Part shown: positions 2,327 through 48,059 of the stretch, one piece after another
Layout: each line of letters starts with the position of its first letter
Numbering within the stretch: the stretch's first letter is position 1
Origin: a virus
Lineage: Duplodnaviria; Caudoviricetes
IMG/VR virus record: IMGVR_UViG_3300028048_001497
Span: 96,001-160,000 of that record
Direction: 5' to 3' (one strand)
Length of the DNA stretch: 64,000 bases
Made by a program: the position numbers and the translations under genes
Notes under the pieces: generated by a model
The model's input: only the letters and a program-made list of their open reading frames with translations
What the model was told of the DNA's origin: nothing
Databases searched by the model: none

Positions 2327-2393
2327 ATATGGAGCGCCGTAAAACCCCGCCCTTTAGGGCTGGTGATATAAGGTGCGAGAACTGAATTAAGTA

Positions 2394-2422
2394 TTGACAA
2401 GTTTCAACATTTGTAGTATAAT
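2394..2422 (+). promoter_or_regulatory. Sigma70/SigA consensus promoter of tnpB
   Basis: TTGACA-17 bp-TATAAT. Confidence 0.85.
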
Positions 2423-2453
2423 ATAAACAAAACAACAAAAAGGAAGTGAGAAA

Positions 2454-3575
2454 ATGGAAAAATATATTAAGGGGTTTAAGTTTAGAATCTATCCTAACAA
2501 GACACAACAACAACTCATTAATAGTATTTTAGGCTGTTGCAGGTTTGTATATAATCATTTTCTCGACATCCGTAAAAATGAATGGAAAGCAAATCATAAC
2601 TCACTGACCTATGCTAAGACAAGTAAACTTCTCACAGACTTAAAAAAGCGAGAGGACACATCATGGCTAAAAGAAGCAGATAGTACTGCATTACAGCAGT
2701 CTTTGCGTGACCTTGACCGTGCCTATGAAAACTTCTTCAAAAAGAGAGCAGGCTATCCGCGTTTTAAGTCAAAGCATAGTAGCAGTCAGTCCTATCGTAC
2801 AATCAATCAAAAAGATGGTATTCGCATCGTAGATAAAAAGATAAAACTTCCTAAGATTGGTTTTGTGAAAATCAAGCAAAGCCGTACTTTTGAAGGTCGT
2901 ATCTTAAACGCTACGATAAGCCATATAGCTTCAGGAAAATACTTTATTTCTCTTTGTGTAGAGATGGATAAAGAAAAACTAATTTCAACTAACGATGGTA
3001 AACAGATTGGTATTGATGTTGGTTTGAAAGAATTCTATACTGATAGTAACGAAAACATCATTGCTAATCCTAGAGTTCTCAAAAAACTATCAAAAAAGTT
3101 AGCTAGAGAACAAAGGAGACTTTCTCATAAAATTCCTAAATCTAGGAATAGAGAAAAAGCTCGTATTCGTGTAGCTAAAGTTTACGAACGTATTACAAAC
3201 ATTCGCAAAGACTTTTTACACAAGTTGTCTACACGACTTGCTCGTGAAAACCAAACGATAGCCGTGGAGCACTTGAATATCAAAGGGATGTTAAAGAACC
3301 ATAGACTAGCAAAGTCTATTTCAGATGTAAGTTGGTCAGAGTTCTTCCGTCAGCTTGAGTACAAAACAGAATTACATGGTGGAGAACTACTCAAAATAGA
3401 TATGTTCTATCCATCAAGTCAAATTTGTTCTAATTGTGGTTATCAAAATGCAGAAATTAAAAATCTTAGCATCAGGGAGTGGGTTTGTCCTAAATGTGGA
3501 GCACACCATGATAGGGATATTAACGCAGCAAAGAATGTTTTGCGTAAAGCACTAGAAGAAAAACAAACAGCTTAA
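2454..3575 (+). CDS. tnpB: TnpB RNA-guided endonuclease
   Basis: N-terminal KFRIYPN...GCCRFVYN, RuvC residues GIDVG / VEHL / DRDINAA all intact, zinc finger CSNC...CPKC. Confidence 0.95.
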   Translation: MEKYIKGFKFRIYPNKTQQQLINSILGCCRFVYNHFLDIRKNEWKANHNSLTYAKTSKLLTDLKKREDTSWLKEADSTALQQSLRDLDRAYENFFKKRAGYPRFKSKHSSSQSYRTINQKDGIRIVDKKIKLPKIGFVKIKQSRTFEGRILNATISHIASGKYFISLCVEMDKEKLISTNDGKQIGIDVGLKEFYTDSNENIIANPRVLKKLSKKLAREQRRLSHKIPKSRNREKARIRVAKVYERITNIRKDFLHKLSTRLARENQTIAVEHLNIKGMLKNHRLAKSISDVSWSEFFRQLEYKTELHGGELLKIDMFYPSSQICSNCGYQNAEIKNLSIREWVCPKCGAHHDRDINAAKNVLRKALEEKQTA

Positions 3576-3721
3576 TGATATATAAATACCGTGGGGCACA
3601 CGGGAATCAACGCTTGGGGAGAGTGTGTAAGACACCAATTCTTTGGAGGCGGTGCAACGCTCAATGAACCAAGAATCCCCTACCTTTAGGCATGGGGAGT
3701 GTCAAATGGGGGTGAGTGTAT
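3540..3721 (+). ncRNA. Predicted TnpB omega-RNA (reRNA); guide begins at 3706 (ATGGGGGTGAGTGTAT)
   Basis: Right-end scaffold (taccgtggggcacacggg...tgtgtaagac...gaatcccc...gtcaa). The 5' boundary is approximate. Confidence 0.7.
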
Positions 3722-14000: not shown

Positions 14001-16935
14001 AAGACAGATTGGTGGGTTCTTTAATTCTCCATTGGGGAAAGCATATATGAACTCGTTTAAAAGTTCTCCATTTTTAACTATTGGCGGTACATTATTGGGT
14101 GCAGTTGCTTTAAGAAAAGGAGCAGGGTATCTTGTTAAGGGTGGTTTTAATGCGTTAAAAAATGTTGCTATGGGAAAACCATCAGGAATAAGTAAGGCAA
14201 AAGTTTTGGGTGGCGGTGCAGTAGCTCTATTAGGTGCAGGTGGTCTTGCATGGAATCAATATGAAGGATTGCAAGAACAAGCAAATAAATTAGGAGAAAA
14301 ACCACCACAAAACGAATTGGCAGAAATGTTTGCCAATGGTACTGCTAAAATGCAATTAATTATTAATCCTGATAAAAAAGATTATACAATTTTAAAGTAT
14401 GCAAGTTTGTTGGCTTTAGCAGGTGTTCCTATTTATTTGATTTCTCGATTGTTAAATAAAATGTCATTGAAAGGTAAAACAAAATATGCAAATGAATTAA
14501 AACTTTTAAGACATTTATCTAAAAATTCAAATAGACAATTAAAAGCATTTACAAATCCAAGAAAAACACGTAGATTTGCAAAATTAAGACAACAATTAAA
14601 AGAACATAAAAAACTAACTAGAAGAAAGTTTCAAAAATATCAAAGAGAACGTAAATTATATGTGCAACAAATAAAAAAAGCGAGAGCAATACAAAAGCAT
14701 AATCAAATAATTCGAGCAAGAATACAAGCTAAAAGAAAACTTGCTAGAGAAAAACTTGCACAACATTTGAAATGGTCAAAAAGATTTAAATATGCAAAAC
14801 GTAGTGGCTTGTTAGCAATTGGAGCTGCGTTTTTAACAAGTTTATTTGATAAAGATGTAAGAAATAGTACTATTGGTTCTATTGATGCAGGTTTAGCAGG
14901 TGCTTTTATTGGTGGTGCTTTAGGTGGTACAAAAGGAGCTATGCTTGGTGGTGCAATTGGAGCAGGTGCGTCTGAATTGTTACAGACAAATGATGAAAAA
15001 GCAAGTCAAGCATTGGCGAGTGAAATGAAACAAGAAGCAGAAATGCAGAAAGATGATAGTTTAGCAGGTCTAGTTCTTGATTCACCATCTAAAAAACAAA
15101 CAGAAACGCAACAATATAAAGCTAGTCATGCAGATGAACAATCTAAAAAACAATCAAAACAATTTAATCAATATGTTAATTACAAAAAAGCAGAAACAGA
15201 AGCATATAACAAAGAAAAAGAAATGGAAATACAACGTAAAACCATTGATGATTCATCTGAAATGATTAATGCGACAAATGATTTGTATACACAAGAAAAA
15301 CGTCAAAGTTTAGAATCTCATGGTATTCAATGGGGACAAGTTGCAACTCATGAAAAACAAATTTGGCAAACAACTTATGAAAATTTCTTAGCAGTTTATC
15401 AAGATAGAAAAATGGCATTGGAAATGGCTGCGAAAGCACTCATAGCTTGTAAGAGTATGGGTGGCGGTAGTGGAATAAATGGTGCTCCAACATCATTTGT
15501 TGAATATGGTAATAGAATGTTACAAAGTGCTCCACCAGAAATACGTCAAATGATAAAAAATGCGCATGATAAATATCCAAATGTTCCTGAGTTTGTTATT
15601 GCGGCAATTGCCGCACATGAAAGCGGATTTCAAAATGTAATGAATGGTCAAGGCTCTGGTGCAACAGGTATGATGCAAATAATGCCTGGTACAGCCGCAG
15701 GTGTTGGATATGGAGATACAGATAGATTACTTCATGACCCACAATATAATTTAATGGCAGGTACAGCATATGTAAGCACTTTAGCATCTAATTATGATTC
15801 ATGGGCAAAAACTATAGCTGCATATAGTTTAGGTGGTGGAGCGATTGATGGTTTAATTAAAAAATATGGAAATGATTGGTATAGACATTTGGAAGAAGCA
15901 GATGAAGCGTCAGGTGTACCTGGTCAAACAACAAATTATTTAAAAAGTTTGGGATTAATGGATGAAAATGGAAATTTAAAACCTGAAAATGCAAGTTCCG
16001 TATCTATATCTCCTAGTGTGTCTAGTCCTCCAGGCGCAGAATATAGTGGGGATTTAGGTGTTGATTTTTCTCATTTAAGATGGAGTGGATTCGTAGCAGA
16101 AAAAGGATGGGACCATAGTTATGATGCACATGCAAATTCTGCACAATATATTGCCATGGATATTGGTAGATTAACTCCAAAAGCGAAACAAAGATTAAAT
16201 GCATTAACACAATTATATGCAAAATATAGTAATGGTGGAACATTAGAATGGAACGTAGCTACATTAGGGCATGACCCTGGTACGGCACATACTACAGGAA
16301 GAAAAATTGATATTGCTAGTGGTGGAGTTAATGAAGAAGCACTAATTAAAGCAGGTAATGAAGCTCATGTTGGTGTAGATAGAGAAGACCCTTATCACTA
16401 TGATTTGTTATTAGAAGGTACAGGTTCAAATCATTTGGGACCAGTTATAACAGAAAGATTTTCTTGGGATGATGCAAATTCAAATGGTGATTCAGGAGCA
16501 AATCCAAAATTAAATCTTAATTTGAATCTTGAAGATATAAAACCAAAAACATTAAAAGAACAATGGGATGACAGTTGGAAAGCGTATAAAAAAGCAGTTC
16601 ATAATGGTAAAGCAAAGCATGGTGCTCTAGTTAATGGTGTTTATATTGATACATCAAAACCATATCAATCTATTGAAGCAATAGGAAAAGAAATAAGAGA
16701 AAAAAATAGAAAACAATGGGGTGGATTGGAGGATTATGTAAAAGAAAAAGATAAACAAAGTAATTTTAATGGAATAAAACAACAACAAGAAGTATTAGAC
16801 CATGAAGATATTCAAATGAAACTAACCAGAGAACAAATGGATTCAAATCAAATTGTTAATTTTGTTAAGGATGTTAAAGACGCTTTAAGTGCTTTGTATG
16901 AACCATCAGGCTTTAATGTAGCTTGTGTTGTATAA
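11044..16935 (+). CDS. Tape-measure-like protein 2 (1963 aa) with lytic transglycosylase and putative M15-like peptidase domains
   Basis: Core paralogous to protein 1. SLT motifs AIAAHESG, GMMQIMPGTA, AAYSLG. Hx6D (HTTGRKID) with a downstream HYD. Confidence 0.8.
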   Translation: MDYTEKLQQKTSIDKKIAEISDGVRMALNEKQALVTEFLSNEDNLGKNVKKEFEGFGDTINKLSTILNVFAKLQQSSQSGFIANNVKMQEDFLSSLRTIQDMIKNDENLKHTLISVQTGDGKKRQVFRLINNFGNMIDEFQNETDISKLQSLPLLNNFDLSTIGSEDLKHIYEAYQSPNQIVDVNGTTKTLFDLVNNQYVNKISDIIERATHQVKYAKEETHKTSNQILLELVNQVKDEKFSGKTEKEQKEIINQLFRLKSYADKVVEEYSQTPIDTNQGNYDKINQFIRLAKDIQKELDEQQEEEENKKKTDVDKFNNIQGFIANFFSTIYDEETKGTVTDLNALNEVLTQGSFRGKINNLADEMNYANTSINDDNKGKKEKYDAIIQQQRTQVATKTSFDNKALTDISSYLKINPTDNDLFDVSNAQFANVVDNVRRKNVAFNNLTKDFFGNTSLTFRANENSSLLKPMMVGAYDVTKANREMLSQVSTNPISYALFTNDEDKQKLQELSQTVHQTVDKLNKILFAYSNLEQKPNEYYKLKDEKEALELQLHHIDDLQQSLNGFADTLRYLRIFKDKMLGLLAGGLSFLGIGAILHPLQMLHDVTEQAKQNGQMRYNIALTDTAFGANPSQSNIYDLSYYAPSHYFMATYGQIPYQTVSEMYRGFQSSIGGQYGNGPEANRRDMAWLSKNLVPDKVLLNVDSGNLQSFMKTFYRDMRMSAQDATIKLRSLETFAQNNGIPVNNLLQAFNSSNEAMRQLGMNQEKYLDAMTSLIGVNNMRMEDANALVQQTAHNTGTFAEDWSRNMFWGLWKNPEKSSFDVLLSGYKSHDRNGKPIDSYYDNLIDRMFAEQDFFGSRFGGIHTTMGQVSAFNKILEQGYTIKQAQEIVQLKEEGRNEELKEKLKGWDKLKNDPMALPHTTQEYTAQLHQAGEQLSEFTKIQATYKQFINNISFLLETTMSKELEIGLKALEKIIDTFTSVMVEIIRQIGGFFNSPLGKAYMNSFKSSPFLTIGGTLLGAVALRKGAGYLVKGGFNALKNVAMGKPSGISKAKVLGGGAVALLGAGGLAWNQYEGLQEQANKLGEKPPQNELAEMFANGTAKMQLIINPDKKDYTILKYASLLALAGVPIYLISRLLNKMSLKGKTKYANELKLLRHLSKNSNRQLKAFTNPRKTRRFAKLRQQLKEHKKLTRRKFQKYQRERKLYVQQIKKARAIQKHNQIIRARIQAKRKLAREKLAQHLKWSKRFKYAKRSGLLAIGAAFLTSLFDKDVRNSTIGSIDAGLAGAFIGGALGGTKGAMLGGAIGAGASELLQTNDEKASQALASEMKQEAEMQKDDSLAGLVLDSPSKKQTETQQYKASHADEQSKKQSKQFNQYVNYKKAETEAYNKEKEMEIQRKTIDDSSEMINATNDLYTQEKRQSLESHGIQWGQVATHEKQIWQTTYENFLAVYQDRKMALEMAAKALIACKSMGGGSGINGAPTSFVEYGNRMLQSAPPEIRQMIKNAHDKYPNVPEFVIAAIAAHESGFQNVMNGQGSGATGMMQIMPGTAAGVGYGDTDRLLHDPQYNLMAGTAYVSTLASNYDSWAKTIAAYSLGGGAIDGLIKKYGNDWYRHLEEADEASGVPGQTTNYLKSLGLMDENGNLKPENASSVSISPSVSSPPGAEYSGDLGVDFSHLRWSGFVAEKGWDHSYDAHANSAQYIAMDIGRLTPKAKQRLNALTQLYAKYSNGGTLEWNVATLGHDPGTAHTTGRKIDIASGGVNEEALIKAGNEAHVGVDREDPYHYDLLLEGTGSNHLGPVITERFSWDDANSNGDSGANPKLNLNLNLEDIKPKTLKEQWDDSWKAYKKAVHNGKAKHGALVNGVYIDTSKPYQSIEAIGKEIREKNRKQWGGLEDYVKEKDKQSNFNGIKQQQEVLDHEDIQMKLTREQMDSNQIVNFVKDVKDALSALYEPSGFNVACVV

Positions 16936-16944
16936 AAATTTTAT

Positions 16945-17319
16945 CGTAAGATAAGACCCCCACTTCTAAGCTACGAGGTAGCCGTTAGGCTACCGAGTAA
17001 CGAAAGTGGGGGATGACTAATACTAACTCTTGACTATTTTTACAAATAGTGATACAATTAAATCAAAGGAGGTAAAACAAAATGCTAAAAGCGTACAAAT
17101 TCAAATATCTTGAATGAAGGTAAAAGGCTACTAAAAGTAGCCTAAACCATATAAAAACTGTACCGTAGGGCTTACGGAATCAGTATAAAACTAAGCCTAT
17201 GGAGATTGTGTAAGACGTAAAAATGTATGGCTACGCCATACCTCATGCGGTTTCACCGCATACGCTACGGTCTGAGAAGTAGGAATCCCCCCACCTCTTT
17301 AGGTGGGGGAGGATGTCAA
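16945..17319 (+). mobile_element. Non-autonomous IS200/IS605 mini-element copy A (tnpB deleted, omega-RNA retained)
   Basis: 375 bp, preceded by TTTAT, ends GTCAA. Terminal hairpins, internal promoter 17030-17058, tnpB remnants. Near-identical to 47544..47918. Confidence 0.9.
17082..17145 (+). pseudogene. tnpB: tnpB remnant: N-terminus MLKAYKF joined out of frame to C-terminus NILNEGKRLLKVA*
   Basis: SD AGGAGG. Both peptide fragments are typical TnpB termini. Confidence 0.8.
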
Positions 17320-17404
17320 TTGATATAATATTTCCAATAAAATTATCTATATTTTAATTAGATGATAAAAATTTTTCATAATAGGAAGGATTTGACATAA
17401 TATT

Positions 17405-17815
17405 ATGGCAACTAAAAATAAAAATGATAAATTGATTTCTGAAATGCTTGCAGATTTGATTGACCCCAGTGAGGAAACAGAAGTTGTAGAAAAGTATGGT
17501 AAGAAATGGGCTATGCGTCCGATTTCTTCACAGGAATATCTTGAAGCATTAAAGGAAAGTCAGAGTTATAATAAAGATGATTTAACTCGTATGTTCGGTA
17601 TGCAGATTAGTATTCTTAAACATGCTTTGGTTTCTGTAAACGATTTGGTTCTTACAGATGAACAAAAGACAAAGGTTCTAAATGCAATTAGTCCTGCCGT
17701 TCTTACAACATTGTATAATGAGTTTGAAGTTATTCGTCATAAGAATGATGATGAAATTTCAAAGATTGAAAATGCTTCAGCAGAAAAAACAAAAAATGAC
17801 ACAATTGATGCTTAA
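17405..17815 (+). CDS. Putative tail assembly chaperone, short (G-like) form
   Basis: KKWAMRPISSQEY...LKHALVSVN...PAVLTTLYNEF aligns with KEWEFRTLSSEEY...LQSALLSIN...PKVIDILYQEY of 4155..5132. Confidence 0.65.
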   Translation: MATKNKNDKLISEMLADLIDPSEETEVVEKYGKKWAMRPISSQEYLEALKESQSYNKDDLTRMFGMQISILKHALVSVNDLVLTDEQKTKVLNAISPAVLTTLYNEFEVIRHKNDDEISKIENASAEKTKNDTIDA

Positions 17816-37341: not shown

Positions 37342-40300
37342 TTGAAAACAGGTATTAGATTTACTTGTTTGAAAAATGGAGATAATTTATTAGGTCAGAA
37401 TTGGGAATACAAAAATAAAACTGGCGTAGATGCAGTTAAAGAAAAACTCAACACTCTTTTTTATCTTACAGATGATTTAAGTGTTGACTATATTATTGAT
37501 ACATTACAATTAGGTAAAGGTTCTGCAAATGATTTATATTTACCGAATACAGGTATTAATGGCGATTTGTGGTCAATTACCGAAAGAATGGAACAATATG
37601 AAAAATTATCTTCACAGTATAACAAACAATTAGTTATTGAATTAGAGTTCCCAACTTATGTAACTGAATATAATTATCAACAGTATGCTCAATATGCAGT
37701 AGATGTTATTCATAAATTTTCATTTGTCAAATATTGGCAAATAATGACAACTCCTGAAGAAATTGATAAGGCAACAAATGCGTATAAATGTCCACCTGGT
37801 GTATATGTGCAATTGATAAAATATATTTATGAGATTGTACATACAAATGACCCAACAATGCATATTGGTGGCCCAGGTTGTTTTAGTGCAGTTGTTGACT
37901 ATATAAATAGTGCTTATAAAAATGCAGATAAGCAAGTGTTCCATACAGGATGGCTTGCAGAAGCAACAGGTGAATTATATGGTACAAATCCTGCTTATGA
38001 TAATACAGAAAAAGCAGGTTTCTTACCTTACATAGATTTCTTTGCTTTTCAGGGAGATATGAGTACAGGTAAGTTTACCTATGAAAATTTTTATTTTGAT
38101 GTACAGAAATTAAAAACAGGATTAGTTGCACAGGCAAATCGTTCAGGTATTACTTTTGATGTTCCATTTGTTTCAACAAAACAAGGTCATATGGCAGATG
38201 ATAAATCAAAACAAGACCTTGAATTACAGGCTTATCGTGATTTAAAAGAGTATATGATTGATTTCGTATCGGATGTTGTACCTTTTAAAGCACAATTAAT
38301 TGATGAATATTTCGATGAAAAAGATAAGAATACACAAAAAAATGTATATGGCATTTTATATTATTATGTAAATAATGCTTATAAACCTGCGTATCAACAA
38401 TTTCAATTTATTTTAAATAAATTAAAAGATTATCATACAATTTTAAAAGATGAAATAATGATAAAAGCAAAACGCCCTTATGATGATTTAGAGGGTGATG
38501 TGCAGAGTGTTATGTTCTTGAATGATAATAAGGATAAAGTACTTACAGTAATTTATCCGACAGTAGAACGTAATGTTAATATAGGCAATACAACTTTTTC
38601 AACGGTTACATTAACACCTGCGTTAAATCGAACGGTTTATTTACCGAATGGAAATTCTGTTAGTTTGGTAAATCCAACAGATGTTAATTTTAAAAATTAC
38701 GATTTTATTGTTGTTGAAGAAAACATTGTTGTTAGTACAATTAACAAAGAAGAACTCCAAGCGAATGTTGAACTAAAATTAAAATTTTATAATACATACA
38801 TTAAACGTTTATTGAAAATGGTCCCAGATGATTATAATAAGGAAGTATATGATACAAACTTTTATAATCTGCTAAGAGCGGTTGGTATTGAATTTGGTGA
38901 TATGCGATATGAAATGAAAATATTGCAAGATAACTATTATTTGTCTACTGCTCATGGGGATGCCATTTATAATAATTTTGGTGCATTAATCGGTGTTCGT
39001 TGGAAGAAAAAATGGTCAGAAGAACAATATAGAACTGCTGTATCAGGTATTATAGATGCTTTGTTGCATGGTTCAAATAAACCATCTATCCAAAAAGCAA
39101 TTAAGGCTTATACAGGATATGATGTAAAAATTTATGAATTGTTCGAGGATTATGACCATTATGGTATTCCAAAAGAAGAAAATTGGGATAATCAATATCG
39201 TTTTACGGTTGAAGTACAAAAAGATATTGATGATGATTTAGATGTTTCCGATGCATATGATGATGTTAAAGAAGTATTAGATTTAACAAAACCCGCTCAT
39301 ACATTACCAATTATTATGATTGTCTTAGTTGGTAAAGAAGATTATAGAGATTGGTATAAACAAAAATATGGCATAGATTTTAGTCAATCAGATAAATTCA
39401 ATAGTGAATTGATGAAATTCAATGAAAGTAATCGTTTTGGTTGGAAGTCTTTAGGTTATGATTGGGTATTAGAACATGATAGTTCTAATTTCAAAAAAGT
39501 AAATGGTGTATTCCCGATTGCTCCTAGATATACCATGTATGATAGGTATAAATTAGATTATACACAATGGTATAAACAAAAATATAAAAAACCTGTAGAT
39601 ATATTAGATGCAGAATTAATTTCATGGTATCAAGATAAATATGATAGAAAAACATTAGATACTATGAAATCTCTAATTGAATTAGAATTTTCTGAAGCTA
39701 AATTCGGTATAAAACCAACGGCAACAGAATGGATATTAAAAACAAATGGTGGATTTTTATATGATGATAAAGGACATATCATTGGTTCAGAATATCGTAA
39801 AACCATGTCACATAGATATGGATTTAAATTTGCATTAAAAGATGATATGTGGCTATTATATGAGTATTTTGGAAAAGAAAAATATAAAGAAGTTAAAGAG
39901 ACACAATTGTTCGCAGAATTAACAATTCATTTAAAAGAAAAGTATGCGAAACCTATAGAACAATATAACGCTCATTTGGAATCATCATATCAAGAATTAA
40001 AATTCGGATTAGTACCGAATTATAATAAAACTGCTATGACTTATCAAAAAAATCCACGAAATAGATTGAATCGGTTGGTTGACCATAGCAGATATGCGGT
40101 AAAAAATCGCTTATATGATGGAGATATTTCAGAATCCCTGACATTTAATGAAAATGTAAAAAATCCAAGTAGTAATTTAATAATTACAAATAGTAAAAAA
40201 TTTAAGGAAAAAATAAATAAGCCAACAGATAGTTTTTTTACTGTAAATCAAGAGCATACATATTCTGAAAATAAATTTAAATCTCCGACAGAAAGTGCAA

Positions 40301-40362
40301 CGATTGAAATGTTCAAATTTGTATCTGGTGTAAAAACAATAATTAGAACAGAAAGTGTGTGA
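37342..40362 (+). CDS. Baseplate wedge (gpI/gp7-like) protein with N-terminal degenerate GH-A glycoside hydrolase domain
   Basis: C-terminal half YLSTAHGD...FGALIGV...EEQYR...KPAHT. N-terminal half VKYWQIMTTPE...DPTMHIGGPG...YIDFFAF. Confidence 0.65.
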   Translation: MKTGIRFTCLKNGDNLLGQNWEYKNKTGVDAVKEKLNTLFYLTDDLSVDYIIDTLQLGKGSANDLYLPNTGINGDLWSITERMEQYEKLSSQYNKQLVIELEFPTYVTEYNYQQYAQYAVDVIHKFSFVKYWQIMTTPEEIDKATNAYKCPPGVYVQLIKYIYEIVHTNDPTMHIGGPGCFSAVVDYINSAYKNADKQVFHTGWLAEATGELYGTNPAYDNTEKAGFLPYIDFFAFQGDMSTGKFTYENFYFDVQKLKTGLVAQANRSGITFDVPFVSTKQGHMADDKSKQDLELQAYRDLKEYMIDFVSDVVPFKAQLIDEYFDEKDKNTQKNVYGILYYYVNNAYKPAYQQFQFILNKLKDYHTILKDEIMIKAKRPYDDLEGDVQSVMFLNDNKDKVLTVIYPTVERNVNIGNTTFSTVTLTPALNRTVYLPNGNSVSLVNPTDVNFKNYDFIVVEENIVVSTINKEELQANVELKLKFYNTYIKRLLKMVPDDYNKEVYDTNFYNLLRAVGIEFGDMRYEMKILQDNYYLSTAHGDAIYNNFGALIGVRWKKKWSEEQYRTAVSGIIDALLHGSNKPSIQKAIKAYTGYDVKIYELFEDYDHYGIPKEENWDNQYRFTVEVQKDIDDDLDVSDAYDDVKEVLDLTKPAHTLPIIMIVLVGKEDYRDWYKQKYGIDFSQSDKFNSELMKFNESNRFGWKSLGYDWVLEHDSSNFKKVNGVFPIAPRYTMYDRYKLDYTQWYKQKYKKPVDILDAELISWYQDKYDRKTLDTMKSLIELEFSEAKFGIKPTATEWILKTNGGFLYDDKGHIIGSEYRKTMSHRYGFKFALKDDMWLLYEYFGKEKYKEVKETQLFAELTIHLKEKYAKPIEQYNAHLESSYQELKFGLVPNYNKTAMTYQKNPRNRLNRLVDHSRYAVKNRLYDGDISESLTFNENVKNPSSNLIITNSKKFKEKINKPTDSFFTVNQEHTYSENKFKSPTESATIEMFKFVSGVKTIIRTESV

Positions 40363-40369
40363 TTATAGA

Positions 40370-41029
40370 ATGTACATTTTATTTGACATGGGTCAAGATT
40401 ATGCCAGTTCGTATTCTTCGGAAATAAAACCATTTACAACAGGAATTAAAATAGATGATATATCAGGTTTAACAAAAGAAATTGAGAAAACAAAATATAT
40501 TAATAAAACAAAAAACGGAAAACAATTATATGTTGATAAATTTGGTATGCCAACAACGGATAGTAGAGACGCAGAACCAATGCAAGAAAAAGTTGTTGCG
40601 AAGGAAACAATAGATTTTGCACATTATCCGAACGAATTTAATAAAATAGATGTAATGAAATATAAACAAAAATTCTTGATGGAAGAAAATAAAGCAGATA
40701 AAGTTTTGATGTATGAATTTGATATTTACAAATTTATTGATAAAGAAAAATCAGAAAACATACAACTTCTTCAAGACGATGTGGAATTATTTCAAAAAGG
40801 TTTTTTAAAAACAAATCCAATTTCTGTAGATGGATATAAAACATTTTCTATATTAGTCGATTCAGAAGATAAAGTAGAAAGTTATTATTCTTATGACGGA
40901 GAAAATTATGTAAAAGCGAAGAAATCAAATCCTATTGTGGATAATGTGAAAGAAATCTATATTGGATTTAAAAATAAATTAGAAAGTGACAATATGGTAT
41001 ATGGCTACCAAATTTTATTGAAGTGTTAA
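40370..41029 (+). CDS. Hypothetical protein in tail module
   Basis: ORF in operon. Start 40370 preferred over 40355. Confidence 0.7.
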   Translation: MYILFDMGQDYASSYSSEIKPFTTGIKIDDISGLTKEIEKTKYINKTKNGKQLYVDKFGMPTTDSRDAEPMQEKVVAKETIDFAHYPNEFNKIDVMKYKQKFLMEENKADKVLMYEFDIYKFIDKEKSENIQLLQDDVELFQKGFLKTNPISVDGYKTFSILVDSEDKVESYYSYDGENYVKAKKSNPIVDNVKEIYIGFKNKLESDNMVYGYQILLKC

Positions 41030-47521: not shown

Positions 47522-47543
47522 TTGTTGACAAAACAGTTTTTAT

Positions 47544-47918
47544 CGTAAGAGAATACCCCCCCACTTCTAAGCTACGAGGTAGCCGTTAGGCTACCGAGTA
47601 ACGAAAGTGGGGGATGACTAATACTAACTCTTGACTATTTTCGCAAATAGTGATACAATTAAATCAAAGGAGGTAAAACAAAATGCTAAAAGCATACAAA
47701 TTCAAATATCTTGAAAGAGGGTAAAAGGCTACTTTTGGTAGCCTAAACCATAAAAAACTGTACCGTAGGGCTTACGGAATCAGTATAAAACTAAGCCTAT
47801 GGAGATTGTGTAAGACGTAAAAAGGTATGGCTACGCCATACCTCATGCGGTTTCACCGCATACGCTACGGTCTGAGAAGTAGGAATCCCCCACCTCTTTA
47901 GGTGGGGGAGGATGTCAA
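47544..47918 (+). mobile_element. Non-autonomous IS200/IS605 mini-element copy B
   Basis: 375 bp, preceded by TTTAT, ends GTCAA, same tnpB deletion junction as copy A. Confidence 0.9.
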
Positions 47919-48059
47919 CCTATATAATAAAGATACTATAAAATGTATTATTCAGGACTAATCGTTAAACATCCAAAAACATACGCAAGTATGTTTAAAT
48001 GTGAATAAAATACACTTTTGTACACATTTGTATATGTTTTTAGAAGGAGGATAAGAATT

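Follow-up and report, generated by a model that had tools for sequence, protein, structure and literature searches.

Two tnpB-deleted IS200/IS605 mini-elements retaining a promoter and an omega-RNA scaffold in a large rumen phage

Introduction

IS608 of Helicobacter pylori, the paradigm for Y1 TnpA transposition, carries both tnpA and tnpB, and a 4-nt AAAG in this element pairs with TTAC. The two mini-elements described here, referred to as copy A and copy B, resemble IS608 in being inserted 3' of a tetra- or pentanucleotide without target duplication, and in having a right end that closes with TCAA and carries GAAT just before its hairpin. As in IS608, the fourth base of the target covaries with the tetranucleotide that precedes the left hairpin, and the combinations AAGA/TTAT and AAGT/TTAA found here follow the Watson-Crick rule. 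Unlike IS608, the mini-elements contain neither tnpA nor tnpB.

A second point of reference is ISDra2 (PDB 8EXA, 8BF8 and 8H1J; PMC10097598), which shares with the family described here a TnpB of ~370-410 aa, a scaffold 3' of the gene that reaches the right end, and a transposon-adjacent motif (TAM) of 5 nt. The ISDra2 TAM is TTGAT, whereas TTTAT or TTTAA is found here; the TAM-contact residues also differ, and the present scaffold lies almost wholly 3' of the tnpB stop codon.

Protein-less derivatives of such elements have been described in two settings. PATEs often encode omega RNAs that would depend on proteins acting on them in trans (Meers et al., 10.1101/2023.03.14.532601). The PATE-like elements of Geobacillus stearothermophilus from that work are, like copies A and B, protein-less, share their ends with tnpB elements of the same genome, and carry an omega RNA that would need a TnpB from elsewhere, with TnpA likewise supplied in trans. 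The present mini-elements differ in residing in a large rumen phage, in keeping the tnpB promoter, SD and start codons, in lying inside promoters in both copies, and in that the TAM of the nearest resident TnpB is apparently a different one. Additionally, mobilised stand-alone omega RNAs work in trans with compatible effectors according to Altae-Tran et al. 2021, as described in PMC10691335, where they are also proposed to add target sites without duplication of the nuclease. These stand-alone omega RNAs match the present mini-elements in having no effector or transposase and effector loci elsewhere in the genome, while the present mini-elements belong to another TnpB lineage, are found in a phage and are known from sequence alone. 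Published work already covers omega RNAs that stand alone and PATEs whose omega RNA acts in trans, and the present element is a further example of this kind of element.

Results

Anatomy of copy A

The window, the whole stretch of DNA analysed here, comprises 64,000 nt and corresponds to bases 96001-160000 of a 174,540-bp IMG/VR record with a CheckV completeness of 35%. Near-identical DNA was present in cattle-gut metagenomes from at least 12 studies. The genes around the mini-elements are phage-like, with a 1963-aa protein containing tail-fibre and lytic domains that stops 9 nt 5' of copy A, and a helicase module 3' of copy B. The initial annotation had described a 375-bp mini-element with a left-end hairpin, a TTGACT-17-TACAAT promoter, an SD and a TCAA end, and this element was confirmed at 16945-17319. 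Its features are as follows, with scaffold scores taken from R1, a covariance model of the scaffold.

16940-16944, plus strand: TTTAT target and TAM, adjoining the left end of copy A on its 5' side, with the border set by the empty site in relatives
16945-17319, plus strand: copy A, a tnpB-deleted IS200/IS605 mini-element of 375 bp that starts with CGTAAGA and ends with GATGTCAA
16957-17012, plus strand: left-end subterminal hairpin (DNA fold -18.2 kcal/mol, z -5.6)
17030-17058, plus strand: tnpB promoter TTGACT-17-TACAAT with TG before the -10 (10/12 matches), the best promoter-like site in the region
17065-17117, plus strand: SD AAAGGAGGT at 17065-17073 and a remnant ORF of 11 codons with its ATG at 17082
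17126-17145, plus strand: GGCTACT-loop-AGTAGCC TAA, a hairpin that spans the final tnpB codons with their stop
17157-17319, plus strand: omega-RNA scaffold core (R1, 151.7 bits), including the right-end hairpin
17320-17335, plus strand: TTGATATAATATTTCC, the predicted copy A guide of 16 nt, placed solely by its position immediately beyond the right end

The left-end hairpin was identical across copy A, copy B and a full-length element, T2, described below. In copy A it is preceded by the 12-nt spacer CGTAAGATAAGA, and the final 4 nt of this spacer, AAGA, are presumed to be the DNA guide for TTAT. Both promoter hexamers were kept in copy B and T2, with variation in the spacer between them. At the other end, GAAT (17283-17286) precedes the right-end hairpin at 17288-17308 (z -2.6), the element terminates in TCAA (17316-17319), and the structured stretch that closes with GATGTCAA extends over ~195 nt. 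The two ends of copy A are subterminal imperfect palindromes and not inverted repeats of each other.

The tnpB gene had been reported as reduced to its first 7 and last 13 codons. The codon counts were correct, as codons 1-7 (MLKAYKF) run at junction 17101/17103 into the final 13 codons and the stop; the 3' stub, however, is read out of frame, which yields a remnant ORF of 11 codons in copy A and 13 codons in copy B. No ORF of 34 aa or more was found on either strand of copy A, and the longest ORFs of the two copies (24-33 aa) were unconserved between them. The hairpin over the old stop codon has a constant stem and a loop that is different in each of copy A, copy B and T2. When read on the minus strand, the hairpin at 17126-17142 is followed by a T-rich run and receives a terminator-like score, as do two other scaffold stems, and the three stems together could block antisense transcription into the element.

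Copy B, the parent-type element T2 and the common deletion

A second mini-element and two full-length elements of the same family were identified. The features of copy B, and of the full-length element within the window, T1, are listed below.

47539-47543, plus strand: TTTAT 5' of copy B
47544-47918, plus strand: copy B, a mini-element of 375 bp, 95% identical to copy A (E 1e-178) and with the same deletion junction
47919-47934, plus strand: predicted guide of copy B, CCTATATAATAAAGAT, by position
2329-3705, plus strand: T1, a full-length tnpB-only element behind TTTAT, comprising tnpB (2454-3575, 373 aa) and its omega scaffold (3583-3705)

Searching the whole record with the mini-element recovered its two halves 1030 bp apart on the minus strand. 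This locus is T2 (G000:C1, about 91929-93352, minus strand, 2.6 kb before the window start; also L006:1468-2577). T2 and the mini-elements are 90% identical at the left end and 93% at the right end, and have the promoter, SD, start codons, scaffold and TCAA end in common. The T2 TnpB is 370 aa long, contains the Pfam domains OrfB_IS605, Cas12f1-like_TNB and HTH_OrfB_IS605, has intact RuvC motifs as read from the translation (IDLG, IENL and DRDINA), and matched the ISDra2 TnpB structures over residues 3-363 (E 1e-84).

Copies A and B both differ from T2 by one identical 1050-bp deletion, which stripped a T2/L017-lineage element of almost its entire tnpB and left the ends, promoter, SD and scaffold. 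The occurrence of the same junction at two loci indicates that the deletion happened once and that its product then reached another site. Loose ends at 17103 in four sequencing runs continue into full-length tnpB sequence on both sides, which confirmed the deletion junction; they also reveal other full-length siblings in the same samples. The parent had been proposed to be a different element from the TnpB at 2454 with the same TTTAT motif. It is indeed not the 2454 element, and an element of the parent type, T2, is present just outside the window; T2 lies behind TTTAA.

Copy B contains two extra C before the left-end hairpin (47544-47562), giving 7 C versus 5 G in the opposite arm. The extra CC displaces the presumed 4-nt DNA guide by 2 nt from the hairpin foot, so that TnpA may have lost the ability to act on copy B.

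Sequence on either side of T2 is 98-99.6% identical to the related phage G002 (L067 2204-3363 compared with G000:C1:91700-93856). At the T2 site, G002 instead carries a 425-bp stretch of an HNH-like gene with TTTTTAA repeats at its borders. Either 425 bp were deleted in connection with the insertion of T2, or the alleles of the two phages differ; precise excision of T2 alone would not regenerate the G002 sequence.

Insertion borders, empty sites and mobility

Both copies and three related elements are bordered by TTTAT immediately 5' and end with TCAA, and TTTAT lies 5' of L017, L019 and a protein-less mini-element in G002. Site A was present without the insert in two related phages (L009/L010) as AAAAATTATT/TCATATAATAATATC, and site B was present in a further relative, G001 (L074, G001:64741-64900), as an uninterrupted TTGACA-17-TATAAT promoter with TTTAT at the insertion point. 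Borders of TTTAT and TCAA, with no target duplication at these empty sites, are the signature of IS200/IS605 insertion. Junction contigs with zero differences were recovered from DNA run X1 for the left and right ends of copy A and from run X2 for the left end, demonstrating that the insertion of copy A is real and stable. With differing flanks and matching junction contigs, an assembly duplication of the two copies is unlikely. An element-free relative co-occurs in the same rumen samples (joint 16721>17381, runs X1 and X2). Two loci with one junction, both empty in relatives, show that the element was mobile after the deletion, in agreement with the mobility originally attributed to the cassettes.

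A search for tnpA and the parent tnpB yielded a parent-type tnpB, in T2, and no Y1 tnpA (PF01797) in the 174.5-kb record, which is a fragment. Y1 TnpA is encoded in the relatives G002 (98% complete) and G006, and the G002 gene belongs to an IS605 with ends unrelated to those of T1 and T2. This IS605 (L067 1-2200; G002:C1:22007-24206) is apparently autonomous, with a 159-aa Y1 TnpA next to a 506-aa ORF and with a left-end hairpin of a different kind, and is located directly beside the locus that carries T2 in the present genome.

Structure and constraint of the omega-RNA scaffold

The element had been said to end in a full omega-RNA scaffold clearly homologous to that of T1. Homology of the copy A scaffold to the T1 scaffold at 3583-3705 was established by R1 and by an alignment of nine sequences (copy A, copy B, T2, T1, four elements of other phages and the G002 mini-element). 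The consensus comprises 30 pairs, with 94.8% of cells paired. Compensatory change was observed at 14 pairs, compared to 3.9 +/- 1.6 in shuffled alignments (0/500 reached 14); slid controls reached no more than 5. The mini-elements (CCGTA/TACGG) and T2 (CCGCA/TGCGG) are distinguished by one compensatory pair. The RNA fold of the mini-elements gave a z of -4.06, and R1 scored both of them as high as the full-length parent-type element. Copies A and B differ at 2/164 columns inside the scaffold core and at 14/214 outside it (Fisher p=0.010), whereas the comparison of the mini-elements with T2 (11/164 in the scaffold, 15/214 in the rest) showed no contrast.

Census and source

Four tnpB genes were counted in the 174.5-kb record. 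R1 detected exactly four omega RNAs, those of copy A, copy B, T2 and T1, in the record; since copies A and B lack tnpB, 2 of the 4 omega RNAs are stand-alone. The two further tnpB genes (G000:C1:1388-2880 and 39593-40816) are unrelated and lie outside the window; one encodes 415 aa and the other 408 aa, and upstream of the 415-aa gene is the end of an ORF that is truncated at the edge of the contig and is similar to the C-terminus of an IS607-type serine recombinase.

No Rfam 15 family matched anywhere in the window; as this omega lineage has no curated model, the result says nothing against the omega reading. Distant blastn with the element against the GenBank phage collection returned one partial match of 64 nt. 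The deletion junction specific to the mini-elements was absent from IMG/VR, and three matches to it in JGI metagenome contigs were rejected as chance matches in unrelated coding DNA, so that this phage lineage and Logan contigs from cattle-gut runs were the only places where the junction was detected. Among bacterial genomes, the best full-length relatives of the T2 TnpB were ~50% identical and all from Bacillota, and short T2 TnpB-like fragments (63-71%) were found at contig ends in Kandleria vitulina. The bacterial genomes searched with the T2 TnpB held only weak DNA similarity to the scaffold, and no host or bacterial source was identified.

Other tnpB-less derivatives

The mini-element of G002 (L016 1676-1985, minus strand; G002:C1:238175-238484) is protein-less and lies behind TTTAT. 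It combines a T1-type left end and promoter with a deletion from just 5' of the SD to three codons before the stop, and its scaffold is chimeric, being T2-like in the 5' and middle parts and T1-like in the 3' hairpin. No TnpB of this family was found in G002, which is 98% complete. Plainly decaying fragments also occur in that genome, one consisting of a left end and promoter only and one of a right end only. In RNA-library run X14, a contig joins 17077>17137 with GGCTACTTTCG between and retains the promoter and scaffold; this joint is a third independent tnpB deletion.

In G004 (L069, G004:C1:58250-59150, minus strand), an omega scaffold of the T1 type lies immediately next to a TTGACA-17-TATAAT promoter, and this locus may be an immobilised, promoter-driven stand-alone guide RNA. 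No recognisable left end was seen upstream of it, and a tRNA-like sequence lies ~130 nt downstream. A second scaffold of the same sort, more degraded, is present at L070.

Resident TnpB proteins and the guides

The two nucleases of this family in the record, both intact and from related clades, match the mini-elements in different respects. The T1 TnpB, which is 48% identical to the T2 TnpB, contains OrfB_IS605, Cas12f1-like_TNB and HTH_OrfB_IS605 and carries TTTAT-type TAM residues, which makes T1 a possible TAM-matched nuclease for the mini-elements. Its omega RNA scored 111.5 bits with R1, ~40 bits below the mini-elements, and its scaffold is diverged and ~40 nt shorter.

T2 sits behind TTTAA and not TTTAT, and the 4 nt before its left hairpin are AAGT, compared to AAGA, AATA or AAAA in elements at TTTAT/TTAT. 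At the DNA level, the T2 and L017 tnpB genes are 50-68% identical over codons 41-120 and 87-93% identical elsewhere. The TAM-contact residues of ISDra2 are Y52, S56, K76, F77, Q80, T123 and N124 (PMC10097598), and T2 codons 41-120 contain the equivalents of every one of them. T1 and L020, although distant, retain the helix LQQSLRDLD, which is replaced by LFWSAKRLQ in T2. This pattern suggests that codons 41-120 of T2 are a recombined module, and T2 looks retargeted to TTTAA. With both its motif changed and its TAM-reading segment diverged, T2 may not cut the TTTAT sites of the mini-elements. Mixed elements, L018 and the G002 mini-element, suggest that scaffold modules are exchangeable. Taken together, we put the use of the guide RNA by a TnpB in trans at slightly less than an even chance.

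Promoter siting, guide targets and RNA-library coverage

Each mini-element is followed at a distance of 4 nt by a TATAAT box, and ATATAATA occupies positions 4-11 of each predicted guide. Copy A precedes the extended -10 TGATATAAT of the promoter of the downstream gene, a sequence contained in its predicted guide, and copy B interrupts the spacer of a perfect TTGACA-17-TATAAT promoter, of which G001 has an intact version. Candidate readings of this siting are target choice, tolerance in short intergenic regions, or compensation by the promoter of the element.

The guide of copy B matched the G001 empty site at 13/16 nt, with mismatches at positions 2, 12 and 15, and site A in relatives has a guide mismatch at position 3 and ATTAT as its TAM. 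An exact TAM-plus-guide empty site of copy A or copy B was not found in IMG/VR. A self-target search of the phage genome for the TAM with near-guide sequence returned no site behind TTTAT; guide A was seed-perfect at two promoter-like sites, behind CTTTT and TATTC.

Contigs of RNA libraries from two studies tile 16975-17520, although they give no strand, ends or level and may reflect DNA carry-over. RNA-library contigs also span 17290-17520, across the right end and into the downstream gene, and the right end of copy B was crossed as well, while the left flank at 16808-16909 was without cover. The RNA-library cover is a weak hint of expression. A ~4x RNA-library depth of the scaffold relative to the left end (~1x in DNA runs) is a per-contig figure that sums multiple copies, and it was not counted towards expression.

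Discussion

Copies A and B are almost certainly non-autonomous IS200/IS605 mini-elements, that is, omega-RNA-bearing PATEs or stand-alone omega RNAs. An intron or IStron, a riboswitch and a small-protein gene were considered and rejected, as neither a ribozyme or Rfam match nor a conserved ORF was found and homology to tnpB elements was clear.

The explanation preferred here adds a working mechanism to this identity and, taken as a whole, is judged to be reasonably probable. Y1 TnpA supplied in trans would excise the mini-element and insert it behind TTTAT. Transcription from the retained promoter would proceed through a leader of ~90 nt and the scaffold, then past TCAA into the flank, and the resulting omega RNA would bear a 16-nt guide matching the element-free allele of its own site. 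A compatible TnpB, if loaded, would cut TTTAT plus guide in insert-less genomes (an excised sister copy or a co-infecting relative), and recombinational repair after cutting would restore or spread the element. Outward transcription would probably also replace the native promoters interrupted by both copies. Several points count against this mechanism: Y1 TnpA is absent from the record and the G002 TnpA is linked to unrelated ends; the scaffold-matched nuclease, T2, probably reads another motif; the TTTAT-type nuclease, T1, has a different scaffold; and G002 retains a promoter-plus-omega mini-element without a TnpB of this family.

Some of these points would equally suit a passive relic, a MITE/PATE moved by TnpA in which the scaffold survives since the deletion and the A-to-B duplication are recent, and in which the RNA is unused by any TnpB in the infected cell. 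The apparent retargeting of the one resident nuclease with a matching scaffold to TTTAA, the persistence of a similar mini-element in G002 without any TnpB of this family, the decaying fragments in that genome, and the equal divergence of scaffold and non-scaffold sequence between the mini-elements and T2 are all in its favour. We nevertheless consider a passive relic unlikely. The terminal hairpin region suffices for transposition, yet ~195 nt are kept upstream of TCAA, and at least three independent deletions end just 5' of the scaffold and just 3' of the promoter. The scaffold is also under-diverged between copies A and B (p=0.010), RNA libraries cover the element and not its left flank, and other full-length siblings are present in the same samples.

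Alternatively, selection might keep the outward promoter for the gene at 17405 and for the replication module behind 48018, with the scaffold serving as a structured leader. Copy B does split a promoter that is intact in G001, copy A stands 4 nt before an extended -10, RNA-library contigs bridge 17290-17520, and the plus strand has no terminator-like site from the scaffold to the next gene. However, the native -10 boxes are intact 3' of both copies and the extended -10 at copy A may need no -35. This account is very improbable, and it leaves the conservation of the scaffold and the transposon ends unexplained. Although both copies are co-oriented with their flanking genes, as promoter retention would have it, such co-orientation with neighbour genes is already known for IS200/IS605 elements, and has been reported for iscB elements (Meers et al., 10.1101/2023.03.14.532601). 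It is about as doubtful that the dispersed cassettes supply a phage TnpB with several guides against the promoter alleles of competitors, to the benefit of the phage and not of the element. Element-free relatives do share the rumen samples, both guides cover conserved promoter sequence, and half of the omega RNAs of the record (2/4) are stand-alone, but there are two guides only, and relatives mismatch them near the TAM (position 3 at site A, where the TAM is ATTAT, and position 2 at site B). An exact TAM-plus-guide site was not found in IMG/VR, and the TAM and scaffold mismatches of the resident nucleases apply here as well. The multi-guide repertoire benefiting the phage that the initial annotation had envisaged was without support beyond the model of selfish retention and homing.

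In T4-like phages, free-standing homing endonucleases convert or exclude neighbouring genes. By analogy, a phage-to-phage gene drive can be imagined in which a TnpB in trans cuts element-free promoter alleles of related jumbo phages at several loci during co-infection, converting or excluding neighbour genes, with specificity evolving by module swaps. This extension of the homing model is improbable on present evidence, although T2 looks like one such module swap, its TAM, left-end DNA guide and TnpB TAM-reading segment having changed together.

The current picture of OMEGA systems is unchanged by the present findings. The locus offers a clean natural example of a TnpB transposon that sheds its nuclease and keeps its promoter and guide-RNA scaffold. 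With a parent-type element, two derivatives and both empty sites in hand, it is a compact test bed for the use of stand-alone omega RNAs in trans, for the mixing of scaffolds and TAMs across TnpB lineages, and for homing between co-infecting phages. T2 may represent a natural joint retargeting of the transposase DNA guide and the nuclease protein readout, which would be of practical interest for changing the TAMs of TnpB.
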